Below the pieces are notes generated by a model that was not told the DNA's origin, made no database searches, and saw only the letters and a program-made list of their open reading frames with translations. This document shows, one piece after another, positions 50,607 through 58,857 of a stretch of 64,000 bases of DNA. Position 1 is the stretch's first letter. Each line of letters opens with the position of its first letter. Origin of the DNA: an uncultured delta proteobacterium (GTDB lineage: Bacteria; Desulfobacterota; Desulfuromonadia; Desulfuromonadales; BM103); NCBI GenBank assembly GCA_963715335.1, contig CAVQRZ010000005.1:1-64000 (forward strand), written 5' to 3'. A program made the position numbers and the translations under genes.

Positions 50607-52874
50607 TTAACAAAATCCCTGCGACGCGGCAACCGCGGCCTGCCCGAGGGCCAGGCCGCCGTCATTGGGGGGCACCAGGGAGTGGGTAAGAACTGTGAGC
50701 CCTGATTTCTCCAGGCGGGGGACCACCATCTCCGTCAAGAGACGGTTCTGGAAAACCCCGCCCGACAGGACTATCAGATTCAGACCGGTCCGTTGCTGCA
50801 ATTCGGCGCAGACCTCTGCAATCATCATGGCCAGGGTAAGGTGGAAACGGCCGGCAAGCTGATCTGCACCGACACCCGACAGATGGTCTTTAACAATCGA
50901 TTCGATCATCTGCGCCGGATCACAGATAATTTGATCATTCTGGTCTGATAACCGGTAAGGGTAGACAGTTGATTGACCCGGATCGGCGAGCATTTCCAGT
51001 TCCATCGCCGCCTGCCCTTCAAAGGAGACCACCTGGCGCAGGCCGATTATCGCCGCAACCGCGTCAAACAGCCGACCGCAACTCGAGGTAAGGGGCGCGT
51101 TGATCCCCCTGTCCATCGCCTGGGAAACCAGGTGCAACTCGTTTTCGGCAATCCCGGCAAAACACTTCAGCTCGTCGGGGATTTCGCCGAAAACCGACTG
51201 CAGGTAACTCAGCGCCATACGCCAGGGCTGCCTGGTCGCCAGGTCACCACCAGGCATCGGCTGGTAGCGAAGATGACCAAGGCGTTGATACTCCTTCAGG
51301 TCGCCGACCAGGAACTCCCCGCCCCAGATATGACCATCGGCGCCGTAACCGATCCCGTCGAAAATAATCCCGATGGCAGGCTCGCGAATGCCATGTTCTG
51401 CCAGGCAACTGGCCAGATGTGCGTGATGATGCTGTACGGCGACCGAGGGCAGCCCGCTCTCTTCCAGGGCATAGCGTGTCGAATAGTAGTCGGGATGCAG
51501 ATCGTGAGCGACCCGCTGCGGCACGACCTCGAGCAACCTCTGCAAGTGGCTGATCGTAGTCCGGAAAGATTCATAGACCTCGAGGTTTTTCAGGTCGCCG
51601 ACATGCTGGCTTAAAAAGGCACGATCGCCGCGGGTCAGGCAAACGGTATTCTTCAGCTCCGCGCCGACAGCCAGGACTGGACAGCTGTCTCCGGACAAGG
51701 CCACGCCCCGCGGGACAAATCCGCGTGAACGGCGCAGCAACAACGGCCGGTTTGCCATGACCCGGGCAATCGAGTCGTCGGTGCGGGTATAAATCCGCCG
51801 GTTGTGGCACAAAAATGCATCGGCAATCGTCGCCAGACGCTGCAACGCTTCATGATCCTCAAAAGCAATCGGCTCATCGCAGAGATTGGCGCTGGTCATG
51901 ACCAGGGCTTTAAAATCCTGCAGAAGCATATGATGCAACGGCGTGTACGGCAGCATTATGCCAAAGCAACGGTTACCTGGTGCGATATTTTCGGCAAGTC
52001 CGTGGCCGGGTCGTTTCCCCAGCAACACGATCGGTCGCTCAATGCCCTGCAGCAGGCGTGCTTCATCAGACCCAACGACAGCCAGCTCCCTCACCGCGTC
52101 AAGATCCTTTGCCATCAGGGCAAAAGGCTTCTCATCACGCTGTTTGCGCCGCCGCAGCTCGGCAACGGCAGCCTGGTTGAAAGCGTCCACGGCAAGGTGA
52201 TAACCGCCCAGCCCCTTGATTGCGACAATCTGCCCGGCGCCGAGACGGTGAATCGCGTCCTCCAGGGGATCGACGCAATCGAGGGTTGAGCCATCCAGGG
52301 CAACCAGCCGCAGCCGCGGGCCGCAGGCCGGGCAGGCGTTCGGCTGGGCGTGGAATCGACGAGACGTCGGGTCGTCATACTCCGCCTGGCAATCGGCACA
52401 CAACGGGAAATCCGCCATGGTGGTCAGCGCTCGATCGTAGGGGATGCCGGTGACTATCGTATATCGCGGCCCGCAGTTGGTACAGTTGATAAAAGGATAA
52501 CGATACCGTCGATCGGCTGGATCCAGGAGCTCGGCGAGGCAGTCGTCGCAGACAAAGGTGTCGGGCGCAACCTGGGCTCGACGGCTCTGATCGACGGCGC
52601 TCTGGAGAATTCGGAAACCGGCATCACCCCGTGTCGGGGTCTTTTCTATATCGATCGATTGAATCGTGGCCAGGGGGGGCTTTTCATCGCGCACGGCAGC
52701 AACGAACTGTTGCAGGAGGTTTTCTCCCCCTTCCACTTCTATGGTCACACCACGGCTGTCGTTGCACACCGAACCGGCCAGGCCGAAACGTTCTGCCAAC
52801 AGATAGACAAAGGGCCGGAAGCCGACCCCCTGGACGATCCCCTCAACAGCTATTTTATAGCGCAAATACTCCAC
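50607..52874 (-). CDS. hypF: [NiFe]-hydrogenase maturation carbamoyltransferase
   Basis: GIVQGVGFRPF, two Zn fingers, QHHHAH, PPNDGGLALGQ. Confidence 0.97.
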   Translation of the reverse strand: MEYLRYKIAVEGIVQGVGFRPFVYLLAERFGLAGSVCNDSRGVTIEVEGGENLLQQFVAAVRDEKPPLATIQSIDIEKTPTRGDAGFRILQSAVDQSRRAQVAPDTFVCDDCLAELLDPADRRYRYPFINCTNCGPRYTIVTGIPYDRALTTMADFPLCADCQAEYDDPTSRRFHAQPNACPACGPRLRLVALDGSTLDCVDPLEDAIHRLGAGQIVAIKGLGGYHLAVDAFNQAAVAELRRRKQRDEKPFALMAKDLDAVRELAVVGSDEARLLQGIERPIVLLGKRPGHGLAENIAPGNRCFGIMLPYTPLHHMLLQDFKALVMTSANLCDEPIAFEDHEALQRLATIADAFLCHNRRIYTRTDDSIARVMANRPLLLRRSRGFVPRGVALSGDSCPVLAVGAELKNTVCLTRGDRAFLSQHVGDLKNLEVYESFRTTISHLQRLLEVVPQRVAHDLHPDYYSTRYALEESGLPSVAVQHHHAHLASCLAEHGIREPAIGIIFDGIGYGADGHIWGGEFLVGDLKEYQRLGHLRYQPMPGGDLATRQPWRMALSYLQSVFGEIPDELKCFAGIAENELHLVSQAMDRGINAPLTSSCGRLFDAVAAIIGLRQVVSFEGQAAMELEMLADPGQSTVYPYRLSDQNDQIICDPAQMIESIVKDHLSGVGADQLAGRFHLTLAMMIAEVCAELQQRTGLNLIVLSGGVFQNRLLTEMVVPRLEKSGLTVLTHSLVPPNDGGLALGQAAVAASQGFC

Positions 52875-53025
52875 AGGATGAGGATAACGGAAATAACCGG
52901 GAAATGCAGTTTGAAAATCAGGGGATGGTCATGAATATGTTGAGTTTCCCGGGTAATTTGAGAATTAATTATGCATGAGATTGAAGACCCTTTTCCCGTG
53001 GCTGAAACAGCCCTTCAATTAATTC

Positions 53026-53135
53026 AAAAAAAAGCCCCACGGTTCAGGAGGTAGAGAACCGTGGGGCAAATATTTCTTTTTAGGAGGTTTTGAAGAAGTT
53101 GTCTCTGGCCTGCCTGCCACAGCAGGCCTTTGATG
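53026..53135 (-). ncRNA. Candidate small RNA: 5' hairpin, anti-SD motif and intrinsic terminator (5' end uncertain)
   Basis: GGCCTGC/GCAGGCC hairpin at 53108-53129; ACCTCCT at 53088-53082; perfect 12-bp stem GCCCCACGGTTC with loop TCTACCTCCT followed by T8; no credible CDS ends here. Confidence 0.5.
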
Positions 53136-53406
53136 ATTGTTACTCTATCGAAGATATCAAAGGGAATAAACGTGGAGACTCGTATAATATCGATCGTAAC
53201 CTCACAAAACCCTACTGTGCATAACCACACTAAATCAATTGGTTCTGTTCGTTAATTGAGCTGATTTGAATCAAAAACAGAGCCTTCTGGTGTGCCCTTG
53301 TTCTTATTTTACGTTAATAATAGAGATTCGCCCCCTGTGTCAGCGTAGTTGTCGCCTGTAACTGAACTCAACAAGATTGGGGGCAGTCAAACTTACAGAG
53401 GCGCAT

Positions 53407-53485
53407 AATTCTTACCGAGCCAGACAAATGGGCAAGCCACCCGTTTAAGGTGGACAAGCTTTTCAGAGCCGCTCTCTATAACGAC
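53407..53485 (+). repeat. Cassette-boundary repeat copy 1 (5' half clear, 3' half degenerate)
   Basis: AATTCTTACC-GAG-CCAGACAAATGGGCAAGCCACCCGTTTAAGGTGGAC aligns with copies 2 and 5. Confidence 0.6.
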
Positions 53486-53589
53486 AGACAGAGGGGAGGA
53501 TTCAGTGGATTGTTGTTTCAGCGATGTTGTTGTCTCTGGTAAAATTCAAATACTTATTACTCCCCTCTGCGAAAAGGAAGGGTTCCTTT

Positions 53590-54006
53590 ATGCACAAGCA
53601 CTTATGGATTGGCCTGTTGGCTGTAGCATCGTTGTCACAACCGTCGATGGCTCCAGCCGTCGAAATTATAAAACCTGGGCTGTGGGAAATCATTACTAGC
53701 ATTGAGATCCCCGGGATACCATTTCAACAACCACCACAGACAGTGCGACATTGCGTCACTCCGCAGGAAGCTAAAGAACCTGAAAAATATCTGCCGCTAG
53801 GAAAAGACTGTAAGATCATCGACCTCAGGGCCTCTGCGACCAAGGTCAACTGGAAAGGGGAGTGCACCGGAGAGATCTCAGGCAAGGGCGAGGGGGAGGT
53901 CGAATACAAGAGTGATTCATCCTACGAAGGGATAACTAAGATTCAGACCCAAGGACTGATCTTTAACATGAAACACAAAGGGACGCGGGTCGGGGAATGT
54001 CCCTAA
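53590..54006 (+). CDS. Secreted DUF3617-like protein
   Basis: Signal peptide, KPGLWEI, conserved Cys residues, C-terminal GTRVGEC. Confidence 0.8.
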   Translation: MHKHLWIGLLAVASLSQPSMAPAVEIIKPGLWEIITSIEIPGIPFQQPPQTVRHCVTPQEAKEPEKYLPLGKDCKIIDLRASATKVNWKGECTGEISGKGEGEVEYKSDSSYEGITKIQTQGLIFNMKHKGTRVGECP

Positions 54007-54030
54007 GTTGGGCTTACAGATTATTAAATC

Positions 54031-54132
54031 TCCTGACAAATAGGAAAAGGTCACCCGTTTCAAGATGGCTTTCATCACGTGTATTGAAGAGCTTCCCAAT
54101 TGTCTCTATCAATAAGAAACTGTTTTTCGTCT
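54031..54132 (+). repeat. Cassette-boundary repeat copy 2
   Basis: TCCTGACAAATAGGAAAAGGTCACCCGTTTCAAGATGGC..GTGTATTGAAGAGC..TGTCTCTATCAATAA..GTTTTTCGTCT. Confidence 0.8.
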
Positions 54133-54237
54133 TATAACCAGGGGGTTATGGGATTCGCCAAGAATATGGCAAGACTGTCTGGTGAATCTTGAAGAGTTTA
54201 TTTTTCGTAAAACATTTCCCTGACGGCTTGATTAACC

Positions 54238-55119
54238 ATGAATCCTCCATTTCCTGACCTTGGTCCCAAGATGTCCCGTCAAGCCGTTGGCTGGCTTGCT
54301 GTTTTCGGCTCAGCCTTTTTTTTCTATCTGGCCACTCTTATCATTCGTTGGTCTGCGAATCATGTAACCATTGGTTCTGCATATTTTGTTTTTGCACGCT
54401 TTCTGCTCGGCTTCGTCGTCGTTTCCGTATCCATGGTTGTGCAGAAGCAAAAGTTGCAACCCAAAAGATCCCATTTTCTTGTCGGCCGAATGGTAGCAAA
54501 TACCGTTGCTGTGTTCTGCTTTTACAAAGCAGTAGAGATGGGGGCGTTGGCTGAGGCCAATATCCTTAATATGACTTATCCTCTTTTTGTTGCGGTTTTC
54601 TCGTGGTTTTTTCTTAAGGGTCAACGCGACTTGTTCTCATCGATGATTGTCATGCTGGCCTTTGTCGGCGTCTGGTTGGTCCTTGCGCCGGGCGGCATCA
54701 GCTTCAGCCAAGCAAATCTGTGGGGTCTCGGCTCCGGGATAACAGCTGCAGTTGCGGTTCTTTACCTCAATATAAGCAGGCGCTACCACGACTCGCAGAC
54801 CATCTTGTTTTTTATGTTTGGGCCAGGCATGGTGATGATCCTGATATTCTTTCACAACGCCATCTTTTTGCCGAATGGCGAGGAGTTATTTTATCTGCTC
54901 AGCTGTTCGGTTGCTGGTGTGCTTGGTCAGTATTTATTCACTTATGGGTTTCTCTATGTCACTGCCGTGGAAGGCTCCATTATCTCTTCCAGTCGGATAC
55001 TGCTGGCAGCCCTGTTTGGACCATTATTAGTAGCAGACCCGGTACTGACAGTTTCAGGTTGGTGTGGAGCGTTGCTTATCTTTACTGCCAATGCGGCACT
55101 TGCTTTAAGGAGAGCTTGA
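54238..55119 (+). CDS. DMT/EamA-family transporter
   Basis: About 10 TM in two repeats, FARF, EANILNMTYPLFV, GQYLFT. Confidence 0.9.
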   Translation: MNPPFPDLGPKMSRQAVGWLAVFGSAFFFYLATLIIRWSANHVTIGSAYFVFARFLLGFVVVSVSMVVQKQKLQPKRSHFLVGRMVANTVAVFCFYKAVEMGALAEANILNMTYPLFVAVFSWFFLKGQRDLFSSMIVMLAFVGVWLVLAPGGISFSQANLWGLGSGITAAVAVLYLNISRRYHDSQTILFFMFGPGMVMILIFFHNAIFLPNGEELFYLLSCSVAGVLGQYLFTYGFLYVTAVEGSIISSSRILLAALFGPLLVADPVLTVSGWCGALLIFTANAALALRRA

Positions 55120-55149
55120 ACACGCCCGTTTTCGTCCTGGCAGTGGTGA
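55119..55149 (+). repeat. Cassette-boundary repeat copy 3 (3' segment only)
   Basis: AACACGCCCGTTTTCGTCCTGGCAGTGGTGA vs copy 5 AACACGCCGGTTTTTCTATCGGCAGTTGTGA. Confidence 0.65.
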
Positions 55150-55445
55150 TCAGTAAGAAAATGTTTGCTCATCGTTACGTGATTATTGAAATTACATAGG
55201 TCGCTAATTTAGTCACGAGTGCATGGAGTTAACTCGAAAATGATATTAACATTGCGTTGACTTGAGTGTCCGTGATAAAGACCCTTATCTTAAACGTTTG
55301 TGCAGAGATAGTTTGTTGGACTAGATTAAATGTTAATCAGTCACGAATATGCCACGCAAACTTTTTACGGTTGCGTGTTTTTTATTTTTCAGCAGTTATG
55401 GTTGCACAACCAAGAGCGTTCTCACAGGGGGACAAGGAGGTAAAA

Positions 55446-55646
55446 ATGGCTGAAGGTACTGTAAAGTGGTTCAACGATGCAAAAGGTTTTGGGTTTATCG
55501 AGCAGGACAACGGACCGGATGTGTTCGTACACTTCTCTGAAGTCCAAGGCGACGGTTTCAAATCTCTTGCAGAGGGAGACAGAGTGAGTTTTGATGTGAC
55601 TAATGGCCAGAAAGGCCCTCAGTCGTCAAATGTACGCAAAATTTAA
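55446..55646 (+). CDS. Cold-shock protein (CspA family)
   Basis: [32 protein letters not shown]. Confidence 0.97.
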
Positions 55647-55669
55647 GGTATGTATTTATCTTGATAAGC

Positions 55670-55702
55670 AAAAAAGCCTCGCGGGTTTCCGTGGGGCTTT
55701 TT
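55670..55702 (+). terminator. Terminator of csp (potentially bidirectional)
   Basis: AAAAAAGCCTCGCGG-GTTT-CCGTGGGGCTTTTT. Confidence 0.85.
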
Positions 55703-55706
55703 ATTG

Positions 55707-55818
55707 CCCTGATACCTAAAAAATAAATCGCCCTCGGTTTCCCGGTGGCCATGTTTTTGTGTATTAAAGAGCGTCCTGGTTTGCTCAATCAATGACAAGC
55801 GCGTTTTTGTCTCGGCAG
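55707..55818 (+). repeat. Cassette-boundary repeat copy 4
   Basis: CCCTGATA..CGCCCTCGGTTTCCCGGTGGCCAT..GTGTATTAAAGAGCGTCC..CTCAATCAATGACAAGC..GTTTTTGTCTCGGCAG. Confidence 0.78.
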
Positions 55819-56005
55819 GATTGACAAATAAAAACGGTTCACGGTTACCCATGAGCCGTTTGTTTAGTTGGTAATATCAACGAGACAATTTATTCTTTCC
55901 TTCGCCAACTGCAGGGCCATTCTGCCATGTTCCTTCAAACTCTGTTAAGCTGTAACGACTTTAGTACGTAATCAGTATCCTAACAGCGAAACAGAGGAGG
56001 AAATT

Positions 56006-56110
56006 ATGGGCAAGGGCATGGATAGCAAGAAGTCGGAAAAAAAGGCTCCAGCTAAAAGCATGAAAGAAAAAAAGGCGGACAAAAAGGCCAAAAAGGCCGA
56101 GAAAAAGTAG
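56006..56110 (+). CDS. Small Lys-rich basic peptide (34 aa), below the ORF-track cutoff
   Basis: GAGGAGG RBS; MGKGMDSKKSEKKAPAKSMKEKKADKKAKKAEKK. Confidence 0.75.
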   Translation: MGKGMDSKKSEKKAPAKSMKEKKADKKAKKAEKK

Positions 56111-56260
56111 TCAGTGATGCGCGAGAGAGGCTTGGGTTAGAGGACACTCAAAAAAGCCCCTCTATATTGAGAGTCTCCGGCTTCGGGGACCACATAAGGA
56201 GGTAGCCTACGCCAATAAATGGATAAAAGTTAGCGACGTCATGATGTTCGAGTCAGTAGA

Positions 56261-56387
56261 AATTCCTATTTATCCTGACAATTAGTAATAAGGCCACCCG
56301 TTTCCAGGTGGCCATCATTTTGTGGATTGACGAACGTCCGAAATGTCTCTCTCAATAACACGCCGGTTTTTCTATCGGCAGTTGTGA
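56261..56387 (+). repeat. Cassette-boundary repeat copy 5 (most complete)
   Basis: AATTCCTATTTATCCTGACAATTAG..GGCCACCCGTTTCCAGGTGGCCAT..GTGGATTGACGAACGTCC..TGTCTCTCTCAATAACACGCCGGTTTTTCTATCGGCAGTTGTGA. Confidence 0.82.
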
Positions 56388-56424
56388 GTTTATAGAGCAA
56401 CTCACTTCTCTACCAAGATAATAT

Positions 56425-57000
56425 TCAACCCTTTTTACCAGAAACACTCTTGATTCTGACTGGTCCTTGCTTCTCCGGACGTTTACCAATTTTATCGCGA
56501 TAATATTCCTCCAGAATTATGAAATCTGCATCAATATCACCGCTAGGTTCCAACATACGATCTATACCAATCCGTTTACTTGGATAGTCTATATACGCCA
56601 GAGCAATCGGTACGCCAGTTGCCAGGGCAATACGGTAAAAACCTTCTTTCCATTGTTTTGTCAGACTACGTGTCCCCTCCGGAGCGATTGCCATGACGAA
56701 TTGGTCGCGGCTCATAAAAATATCGATCACTTTTTTAAGAAAGCCGGTACTTCCCTGTCGGTCTACCGGGATGCCACCAATCGCCCTCATAATTGGCCCG
56801 AGCGGCCCCTTAAATAAGGTGTCTTTGCCAACCCAGTTAAAACGCAAGCCGCAAGCCCACATTCCCAGAAGCCCAAGAGGAAAATCCCAATTGCTGGTAT
56901 GCGGAGCACCGATCAGTACGAACTTGTCCCGAGGGGGAAGAGAGAAAGAGACCTGCCAGCCGAATGTCTTGAGTAGAGTCGTCGCGATAATTCTGAGCAT
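56425..57000 (-). CDS. Lysophospholipid (PlsC-like) acyltransferase
   Basis: APHTSNWD (HxxxxD), GGIPVDR, APEGTR. Confidence 0.92.
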   Translation of the reverse strand: MLRIIATTLLKTFGWQVSFSLPPRDKFVLIGAPHTSNWDFPLGLLGMWACGLRFNWVGKDTLFKGPLGPIMRAIGGIPVDRQGSTGFLKKVIDIFMSRDQFVMAIAPEGTRSLTKQWKEGFYRIALATGVPIALAYIDYPSKRIGIDRMLEPSGDIDADFIILEEYYRDKIGKRPEKQGPVRIKSVSGKKG

Positions 57001-57012
57001 AGGGTCGTATTC

Positions 57013-57124
57013 TATCCGACGAAGAAGAAAATGGCCACTCGGGGTTGATCCAGATGGCCATGATTGTTTTGATTTGGGTGCGTCTTAAATCTCTCCATTA
57101 ACAACACGCAGGTTTTCGTCTCAG
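57013..57124 (+). repeat. Cassette-boundary repeat copy 6 (diverged)
   Basis: TATCCGAC..ATGGCCACTCGG..TCCAGATGGCCAT..GCGTCTTAAATCTCTCCATTAACAACACGCAGGTTTTCGTCTCAG. Confidence 0.7.
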
Positions 57125-57468
57125 ATGTCTTGGTCCTGACACACACCCTGGAGTGATTCAGCGGAGTATCTATTAAGAAAGTCAGACAACAGTGTGGCTG
57201 GAATCGCAATGATAGATTGTTTCACTTCTGAGTGTGTCTCATGATTCTCTAAACTCTATTCTTAACAAGAGATGCCAAACTCCCTATTTTCATGTAGCGT
57301 CAAAGATCAGGCTAATCTTCAAGGGGAGAAGAATGGCCTGGGCGGCTTAAACAAATCCGAGGAAAAGGTCTCTTGGAACAGATATAAAGGACGGACGAAT
57401 CGACGCACCTGACTTGGCAAAGAGTGTGATTGCTTTTGCGTCAATGAATTTAGCACGTATTTAAGAGA

Positions 57469-58857
57469 TTACGAGCCTTCGGCCAAATTATATTTCTCCA
57501 TTTTGTAGCGCAAGGTTCCTCGTGGCAAATTGAGAAGGCGTGCCGTTTTCGCAACATTGCCACCGGTAATCACGACCGCCTGTGAGATCAGCTCCTTTTC
57601 CAGTCGACCGACGATCTCTTCGAACAGTACACCTTCCGGCGGAATCTGGTAGTCAAAGGAAGCCTCTGCCTTCGGTTTGCCTCCCCAGATCTCCCTCGGC
57701 AGGCAGTCCGGCGTGATCGTTTCCTGGTTATGCATGATACAGATGCGCTCTACTACGTTGCGTAGCTCACGTACGTTACCCGGCCAGTGGTACCGCATCA
57801 GAAGGTCGAGGGCCGGGCGTGAAACTTCCCGCACATTCTTGTGGAACGCCTTGCTGAAATGTTTGAGGAAGAAATCCAGCAGGGGCGGAAGATCTTCGCG
57901 ACGGTCTCGCAACGGCGCAACATGGATAGGGAACACGTTGAGCCGGTAGAACAGGTCCTCACGAAAATTCTTTCGTTCAATAGCCTCTTTCAATTCAAGG
58001 TTGGTGGCAGCCACAACACGGACATCAATATCAATATTCCTGCTCCCGCCCAGTCGACGGATTTTACGGTCTTCAAGTACCCTGAGCAGCTTAACCTGAA
58101 GATTCATGTCCATTTCACCGATCTCATCGAGAAAGATCGTGCCGCCGTTTGCCTCTTCAAAGAGACCGATTTTACGGTTTTTGGCATCGGTGAAAGCACC
58201 CCGCTCGTGGCCAAACAGTTCTGTTTCGAGAAGGTTGAACGGCAGGGAGCCACAGTTTATTTCGATGAAAGGTTTGCCATTGCGAGGGGACAACTGGTGG
58301 ATTGACTTGGCAACCAGTTCCTTGCCTGTCCCCGACTCACCGGTAATCAGGACCGTTGATGTCTCATGCTTGGCAACTTCCCGAATTTGTCGGTAGACCT
58401 GGGTCAGATGTGCACTGGAGCCGATCATGGTGTTGCTGCCCGGTAAATCCTTAGCCTGCGACCCTCGCCGCAATTGACGGACTTCACGACGCAGGTTCTG
58501 GGTCTCCAGGGCCAGTCGGACAATCAGGCGGATGGCATCTGCCTTGAATGGCTTTTTGATGTAATCGTATGCACCCATTTTCAGCGCTTCAACAGCACTC
58601 TCTACCGTGCCGTAACCGGTAATGATAATAACCAGGATTCCCGGATCGATCTCACGCAGGGCACGCAAGACATCCAGACCGCTCTGGGCACCAAGATTCA
58701 GATCGAGCAGGACCAGGTCGATATCCGAATCGCTGACCTCCCTGATAGCATCGTCACCATTATCTGTGGAGAGGGGATGATAACCATCTTCCTCGAGAAT
58801 TCTTTCCAGGTTTTCGCGGATGAAGGCCTCGTCGTCCACGATCAGGATACGTTCCAT
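57469..58857 (-). CDS. sigma54-dependent response regulator (NtrC/AtoC family)
   Basis: REC, GESGTGKE, GAFTDA, WPGNVREL, HTH; start placed at MERILIV. Confidence 0.93.
   Translation of the reverse strand: MERILIVDDEAFIRENLERILEEDGYHPLSTDNGDDAIREVSDSDIDLVLLDLNLGAQSGLDVLRALREIDPGILVIIITGYGTVESAVEALKMGAYDYIKKPFKADAIRLIVRLALETQNLRREVRQLRRGSQAKDLPGSNTMIGSSAHLTQVYRQIREVAKHETSTVLITGESGTGKELVAKSIHQLSPRNGKPFIEINCGSLPFNLLETELFGHERGAFTDAKNRKIGLFEEANGGTIFLDEIGEMDMNLQVKLLRVLEDRKIRRLGGSRNIDIDVRVVAATNLELKEAIERKNFREDLFYRLNVFPIHVAPLRDRREDLPPLLDFFLKHFSKAFHKNVREVSRPALDLLMRYHWPGNVRELRNVVERICIMHNQETITPDCLPREIWGGKPKAEASFDYQIPPEGVLFEEIVGRLEKELISQAVVITGGNVAKTARLLNLPRGTLRYKMEKYNLAEGS

Follow-up and report, generated by a model that had tools for sequence, protein, structure and literature searches.

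The window analysed here, the first 64,000 nucleotides of contig CAVQRZ010000005.1 from an uncultured member of the Desulfuromonadales, carries an array of unrelated single genes separated by co-oriented copies of a repeat, located between hypF and a gene pair for an NtrC-like regulator and a histidine kinase. An earlier note made from the letters alone had described five such genes, one per interval (encoding a DUF3617 protein, an EamA-like transporter, a cold-shock protein, a 34-aa basic peptide and, on the minus strand, an acyltransferase), and six repeat copies of ~110-130 bp. The gene order and identities, the position of the array and the one-gene layout of all its intervals were borne out, as was the higher AT content of the block (GC content of 45.8% versus 59.4% in hypF and 54.0% in the two-component pair). 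The window array is thus real and the observation is confirmed (Table 1). Four of the six copies are full (R2, R4, R5 and R6), and the length of the repeat is corrected to ~135 bp. These four share 59-72% pairwise identity, and 6/6 pairs beat all 200 shuffled controls. R3 is a right-end fragment (profile match E 2e-7) and R1 just a weak left part, which is missed by the repeat profile, beats 300 shuffles against 2/4 copies and contains a 26-bp site scoring 13.5. The 34-aa peptide is conserved in three relatives (G002, G003 and G006), and is therefore a real gene. Here and below, G000 is the genome of the window, other G numbers are related genomes, L numbers are loci retrieved from genomes, and C numbers are contigs.

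Table 1. Features of the array and its flanks, in window coordinates; A, M and B are the 26-bp sites of the repeat, with central dinucleotides in brackets.
Feature	Position	Strand	Basis or remark
hypF, conserved left flank	50607..52874	-	Gene call and comparison with relatives
Family B repeat: hairpins with CCUCCU loop and terminator, small RNA-like	53022..53234	-	Common to G002 at this locus
Lone 26-bp site, centre GT, weak (score 7.0)	53301..53326	+	Site scoring
Family C, 59-bp element between two sites	53331..53389	.	Single in G000; 94-97% identical copies elsewhere in G002
R1: A 53409-53434 (CA) and hairpin; M and B decayed	53409..53487	+	Site scoring, profile, shuffles
DUF3617 gene	53524..54006	+	Same module at other loci in G002, G015
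R2: A 54021-54046 (CT), hairpin, M 54093-54118 (TC), B 54129-54154 (GG)	54021..54154	+	
EamA-like transporter gene	54238..55119	+	Gene call
R3: right end only, B 55134-55159 (GT)	55119..55159	+	
Cold-shock module: cspA-like leader, csp gene 55446-55646, own terminator	55243..55703	+	At other loci in G002, G006
R4: A 55697-55722 (CT), M 55773-55798 (TC), B 55809-55834 (TT)	55697..55834	+	
Gene for a 34-aa lysine-rich peptide without Pfam or NCBIfam family	56006..56110	+	Kept in three relatives
R5, best-kept copy: A 56263-56288 (CT), hairpin, M 56336-56361 (TC), B 56372-56397 (GT, low score)	56263..56397	+	
Acyltransferase gene, end 28 nt from site B of R5	56425..57000	-	
R6: A 57004-57029 (CC, decayed), M 57082-57107 (TC), B 57118-57143 (TT, decayed)	57004..57143	+	
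NtrC-like regulator, conserved right flank	57469..58857	-	

The anatomy of the repeat was derived from 310 unique copies. It consists of three 26-bp palindromic sites, A, M and B, each with the structure 12+2+12, around a terminator hairpin that lies between A and M and has its U tract on the minus strand, where the hairpin of R5 is terminator-like. The central dinucleotide is CT in 128/148 A sites, TC in 185/236 M sites and GT in 195/212 B sites. None of these dinucleotides is palindromic, and no two of them match, whichever way they are read. For sites A and B the arm symmetry is maximal at the 2-bp centre. The M-B spacing is 36 bp in 177/197 copies, and the A-M spacing forms clusters at 65-67, 72 and 76-78 bp that mainly reflect an indel of 11 bp, close to one turn of the helix. 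Serine recombinase sites are typified by palindromic arms on either side of a 2-bp overlap and by matching centres, a pattern that is weaker in site M. As the earlier note had stated, the RYYYAAC...GTTRRRY boxes of integron attC sites are absent (0/176 copies on either strand), and no Rfam family was found on the repeat. Two other identities were considered for it and set aside. A structured RNA was rejected on the basis of folding, which is significant for R5 only (z = -3.5, compared with -1.6 to +0.7 for the other four copies), and a protein-coding remnant was dropped by eye because of 11-nt and 6-7-nt indels. A recurring spacer of ~65-80 bp, apparently running from CT site to CT site, often precedes site A (upstream of the recombinase gene described below in L099, L101, L102 and L120; also G000:C22:46075-46140); it is possibly a second short linker or promoter module.

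The repeat is not confined to the block. A scan with the repeat model detected 43 matches in G000 (E<=1e-3), 18 of them near full length, and none in the reversed genome used as a control. With the sequence-only model the repeat was found in 38/44 genomes of the family, four of which have at least 68 copies, and in an order-wide sample it occurs in 24/27 family genomes and in 14/123 genomes of other families, with 1-3 copies each. The retrieved loci, which were chosen because they contain repeats, include 69 copies in 179 kb (G011) and 55 in 175 kb (G024). Adjacent copies are co-oriented in 171/172 pairs, the median interval is 1.2 kb, and 90/171 intervals contain a single called gene; the gene beside the right end of the repeat points into it in 121/168 cases. 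According to Pfam scans of 75 of the 146 array open reading frames, the cargo includes kinases, response regulators, glyoxalases, LysR, OsmC, MsrA and transporters. Another 28/75 have no Pfam family, and some of these may be miscalls; no defence family was found by Pfam name among the 75, for which no PADLOC scan was made.

Several further observations concern the arrays. The sole orientation switch (L068:9300-10700, G011:C2) is located at a split IS5-like transposase; a close copy of this transposase adjoins the repeat at G000:C5:211346. A pentameric ligand-gated ion-channel-like gene forms an array module at L067:1775-2794 (G011:C2). By eye, repeat orientation has no consistent relation to GC skew, and thus to replichore. 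Near-duplicate gene runs exist across G000 contigs (C15:12000-25000 and C28:16000-29000; C24 and C5:180000; C18 end and C27). Some of them may represent a second strain, given the 6.9% contamination of this assembly, and can inflate its copy counts.

The comparison of homologous regions reveals where gene modules change their neighbours. Between the retrieved loci and G000 we collected 142 ends of homology (>=90% identity over 300 bp), of which 28 lie on a site in both partners and in the same register (19.7% versus 2.6% of random positions). The centres match in 24 of these 28 ends, where 0.26 would be expected for random pairing of sites. At such junctions one arm is common and the other differs, and on the unshared arm the partners begin to differ 1 nt from the centre in 11/28 and 2 nt from it in 5/28, on both sides (by eye). 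Serine recombinases have a 2-bp overlap, and this pattern fits it and argues against an overlap of 6-8 bp; a core mismatch between sites blocks ligation by these enzymes (PMC4513852). Left arms of different site classes are swapped where the centre matches (L066/L080, L152/G000:C10). Junctions occur at all of the CT, TC and GT sites, and also at single sites that lack the remainder of the repeat (L152 versus G000:C10 and C6). Gene modules mostly extend from GT to CT and the repeat from CT to GT, and modules with 95-99% identity are found in different neighbourhoods. A 1.3-kb module is present at two places in G000 (C10, where it carries a glucose/sorbosone dehydrogenase-like gene, and C6), is bounded by GT and CT sites and is 97.6-98.9% identical to L152:8611-9901, which suggests recent exchange at the sites in this lineage or its donors. 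A search for empty sites gave mostly trivial repeat-to-repeat matches and one semi-informative case, a 694-bp CT-to-CC module opposite an empty CT site. Metagenome contigs (four sets on L083) show high depth on repeats and many repeat-repeat joints, as any repeat would give.

Turnover is also evident at the locus itself. A hypF match was obtained in 38 relatives, and the hypF neighbourhood was compared in 20 of these; neither the block nor the repeat lies between hypF and the NtrC gene in any of the 20 (in four the NtrC gene is not next after hypF, and one contig ends early). In G002, with hypF 91% and the NtrC gene 97% identical, the flanks match up to window position 53231 and from ~57478, with ~290 unrelated bases between them. 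This closest relative thus lacks the genes of the block as well as its repeats at this locus, and its DUF3617, csp and basic-peptide genes sit at three other places. More generally, genes of the window block are found elsewhere in relatives, often ending at repeats; the csp module, compared with G002 and G006, ends at site A and has its site B in common with G006. Four modules in a row in G002:C15 correspond to four different contigs in G000, with repeats at several joints. Genome-wide scatter as in repetitive extragenic palindromic (REP) or miniature inverted-repeat transposable elements (MITEs), which the earlier note named as an outcome that would speak against it if modules did not turn over, is real and accompanied by such turnover, so that the repeat is probably not a plain REP or MITE. 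Across other genera, the hypF-NtrC interval (L036-L050) holds different genes without the repeat, which indicates a spot that varies by more than one route.

The repeat is associated with one clade of small serine recombinases. A PF00239 search gave a match in 28/44 genomes, and in 14/18 loci a repeat lies within 150 nt after the recombinase gene, with all copies there on the strand of the gene. The repeat was found in 0/70 further recombinase loci, 69 of which are outside the clade. The clade has a support of 100 by the Shimodaira-Hasegawa-like approximate likelihood ratio test in a quick tree, whose labelled group did not include L152 although this locus carries the repeat. Its members possess intact catalytic motifs (YARVS, KLDRLAR) and a C-terminal helix-turn-helix, as expected for the resolvase/invertase family, and their closest PDB matches are DNA invertase and gamma-delta resolvase. 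There are 715 database relatives at E<=1e-40, one of them from Geoalkalibacter halelectricus, with names that, where given, are just 'recombinase family' or 'Pin-like'. In many of the 30 listed loci the ~190-aa recombinase stops right before the hairpin-M-B part, with a CT site 70-100 nt upstream, and near-identical copies in different places diverge exactly at the upstream CT and at the TC centre. The recombinase gene thus resides inside the same CT-hairpin-(TC)-GT element, and this, together with the divergence at centres, makes it likely that the repeat corresponds to the recombinase element devoid of the gene. CT is the best upstream site in 22/32 clade loci with a scoring site (43 examined), and a weight matrix built from repeats only finds sites upstream of 9/68 unrelated resolvases, compared with 1.9% of random windows. 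As a movable module inside arrays the gene reaches four copies in G011; several copies elsewhere are broken. In a sister subclade the upstream CT and the downstream GT are retained, mostly with no M. Based on this strong association, the clade likely provides the enzyme of the sites.

Other enzymes do not follow this pattern. The earlier note had advised a search for a recombinase or HUH enzyme co-occurring with the repeat. The small serine recombinases show such an association, whereas tyrosine recombinases, Y1 HUH enzymes (found in 2/5 genomes) and Tn3 transposases (0/5 genomes) do not track the repeat. Two 216-aa Y1 HUH (RAYT-like) genes of G000, at C10:40073-40402 and C9:68347-68679, are not adjacent to it. 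No recombinase adjoins the window array, and G000 as a whole contains neither an integron integrase nor a serine recombinase (no PF00239 match and no tblastn match). With respect to the enzyme itself, Tyr101 (L120:1489-2058; gamma-delta position 103) is invariant in the clade, is preceded by a hydrophobic residue and is absent from 70 controls except L183, itself a clade member. The position is near known activating mutations, and this residue, the only clade-specific one, stays a lead. The separate idea of a naturally activated enzyme, drawn from M and R at the gamma-delta R2/E56 positions, was rejected, as these residues are common to most controls, in part because the search pattern demanded M.

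These results support a site-specific module system well, and we consider it probable that sites with like centres and this one recombinase clade together excise, insert and swap gene modules. We infer recombinase activity, integration and gene capture from the sequence patterns described above. In the proposed mechanism the recombinase would pair only sites with like centres. As the centres mismatch in both directions, such pairing would enforce one orientation and provide as many as three independent channels. Circles containing one gene and one repeat would be excised between two like sites and could re-enter any like site, by which arrays would grow, and two crossovers could swap a gene module. 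New genes might be acquired through pairing of a repeat site with a site that happens to lie on the far side of an adjacent chromosomal gene. This is the least supported step; it would account for cargo that brings its own leader and terminator. The window array is likely an older, decayed orphan, because G000 lacks such a recombinase. The proposal of the earlier note, a non-integron gene accretion site acted on in trans, is supported by the lack of attC boxes, of an Rfam match and of an integrase or serine recombinase in G000, and by the presence of its genes elsewhere in relatives, with capture as the putative part. For a more far-reaching formulation we see the balance as even: a third bacterial gene-cassette system, in which a serine recombinase of 190 aa, no longer limited to resolution, would capture, store and shuffle single genes in superintegron-sized arrays, with the three centres as channels, amounting to natural recombinase-mediated cassette exchange in which the recombinase gene is itself a cassette.

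A number of observations weigh against this module exchange. Most of the homology ends (114/142) are off sites and unclassified, although many of them probably reflect the normal limits of synteny or other mobile elements. The 28 on-site ends are not all independent, as several share one module or site, their centres mismatch in 4/28, and some breaks fall in the hairpin or spacer, which implies an additional role of homologous recombination or gene conversion. For site M, arm symmetry does not peak clearly at a 2-bp centre. In the window block, the left border of the csp module versus G002 is 70 nt inside the module, the right border of the DUF3617 module is ~8 nt left of a centre that differs (CT here, GT in G002 and G015), and the EamA, basic-peptide and acyltransferase matches to relatives cover the gene only. 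Four genomes (G000, G001, G004 and G010) have 15-33 repeats and no PF00239 match, and one (G055) has the recombinase without the repeat at E<=1e-6. Arrays were predicted for the sister clade as well; 5/24 of its loci have one further copy and none is an array. No excised circle was seen in the four metagenome contig sets on L083, which are uninformative for circles. Finally, wild-type Tn3 resolvase only resolves and does not integrate (PMC2602789).

In a rival reading the sites do belong to the recombinase, but it only deletes, in a resolvase-like manner. Arrays would build up through homologous recombination between repeats and through incoming DNA, and the enzyme would trim them, neither capturing nor inserting genes. 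The three subsites in ~130 bp do resemble a Tn3-type res (114 bp with sites of 28, 34 and 25 bp; PMC2602789), some breaks are in the hairpin, and no integration product was observed. We regard this explanation as unlikely, since junctions are found at all three sites and not at one crossover site, lone sites act as junctions too (L152 versus G000:C10 and C6), Tn3 transposase is missing (0/5 genomes), and modules 95-99% identical occupy different neighbourhoods. Somewhat less credible still is a MITE-like, non-autonomous derivative of a recombinase-only element that inserts by gene ends, arrays being its hot spots. It would account for the CT upstream and GT downstream boundaries of the whole clade, including solitary copies in other families, for the dispersal of the repeat in G000 and for the genes that end at its hairpin side (121/168). 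However, unlike centres should block one-step excision (PMC4513852), no empty site joining a CT-left to a GT-right flank was found among 1335 sites, a search of limited power, the cargo genes themselves change neighbours at site centres, and the closest relative is without the genes as well as the repeats.

Two other explanations appear very improbable. Action of a tyrosine recombinase on the repeat, be it XerCD of the host, by analogy with pdif modules, or a trans-acting integron integrase, is suggested by the gene-then-site layout that resembles cassettes, by two XerC/D-sized (~300-aa) tyrosine recombinases in G000 and by a true integron integrase in G002. It is already disfavoured by the lack of attC boxes (0/176), by an overlap of at most 2 bp and not 6-8, by the absence of the repeat in 18 kb around the G002 integrase and by the specific link of the repeat to the serine recombinase clade. 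Equally doubtful is the view that the repeat is retained for its role in expression, as a terminator or small RNA present in many copies. The strong hairpin, whose U tract is on the minus strand, and the folding of R5 (z = -3.5) speak for it, and terminator activity is probably a real, secondary function of the repeat, but the other four copies fold at z -1.6 to +0.7, Rfam has no match, and the fixed spacing, the conserved centres and the junctions would be left unexplained.

Two further repeat families are present at the left end of the block. Family B has 8 copies in G000, 4 of them within 14 nt of the repeat (instances include G000:C15:11900, G000:C28:15963, L071:8886-9103 and L070:476-727). 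Its CCUCCU loop is anti-Shine-Dalgarno-like, it is often carried as a module between 26-bp sites in relatives, and no convincing Rfam match was found for it. Family C, bracketed by two sites in the window, recurs with 88-97% identity at a number of unlinked positions in G002 and G004. The cspA-like leader of the cold-shock module reaches 47.5 bits in Rfam, under the cut-off of 78.

Small serine recombinases are taken as tightly regulated resolvases or invertases. If exchange of modules by such an enzyme at like-centred sites holds true, an array-building member of this family would open a new way of gaining accessory genes, in addition to integrons, pdif modules and the staphylococcal cassette chromosome (SCC), and one that integron-finding tools would miss. 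With at least 69 sites in one genome and a cargo of signalling, transport and stress genes, the arrays may account for a large part of the differences in gene content within this family of Desulfuromonadales from sediment. The system is directly testable, consisting of one small protein and 26-bp sites, and so small a recombinase, provided by nature with three sites that do not cross-react, would be a useful tool for genome engineering.

Integrons, with the integrase IntI and the sites attI and attC, form long co-oriented arrays, mostly with one gene per site and the gene usually ending at the site, and also integrase-less orphan clusters. The arrays described here share the co-orientation (171/172 pairs), the one-gene intervals (90/171) and the occurrence of an orphan array without enzyme. 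They differ in the lack of attC boxes, in double-stranded palindromic 26-bp sites, in a serine and not a tyrosine enzyme whose gene is a movable module, in cargo that can carry its own leader and terminator, and in many loci per genome. In G000 and G002 no IntI is linked to an array: G000 encodes only the two ~300-aa tyrosine recombinases, and the 18 kb around the IntI of G002 are free of the repeat. This IntI is a canonical integron integrase (L074:7765-8736 on G002:C10; TIGR02249, 483 bits) followed by small genes and none of these repeats, and both systems thus coexist in one genome. The pdif/dif modules of Acinetobacter, acted upon by XerCD, likewise form rows of small gene modules with common short sites of alternating types, also on chromosomes; their sites have the structure 11+6+11 and alternate between C/D and D/C (PMC12907356). 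The 12+2+12 sites of the repeat, in contrast, are all co-oriented, are told apart by the central dinucleotide and have a dedicated mobile recombinase, and do not conform to the 28-bp, alternately oriented pdif pattern. Tandem SCC cassettes of staphylococci also use serine recombinases, and enzyme-less cassettes are excised in trans, singly or together (PMC11470126). Those enzymes, CcrAB and CcrC, are large serine recombinases that act on defence-rich cassettes of 17-48 kb at one chromosomal locus, whereas the present system has a 190-aa enzyme far under the Ccr cut-offs, a median interval of 1.2 kb, dozens of modules at many loci and not one fixed locus, and mostly signalling, transport and stress cargo. 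Tn3/gamma-delta resolvase and Gin/Hin belong to the same enzyme family, with 26-bp sites as in hix and three subsites in ~120 bp as in res (PMC2602789, PMC4513852). The repeat differs from them by the absence of a Tn3 transposase, by junctions at all three subsites and not at site I only with II and III as accessory sites, by direct and not inverted sites, by a gene between subsites and by tens of copies per genome. Our literature search, which covered few subscription papers, turned up no account of serine-recombinase arrays of this kind, although repeat tables supplementing the genome papers on Geobacter and Pelobacter might list related sequences; one study (PMC13552941) uses small serine recombinases as defence markers and does not contain the terms res site, integron and repeat. 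Overall, the array works like an integron or a pdif array, shares the in-trans logic of SCC, and departs from each of these systems in the features that define them.

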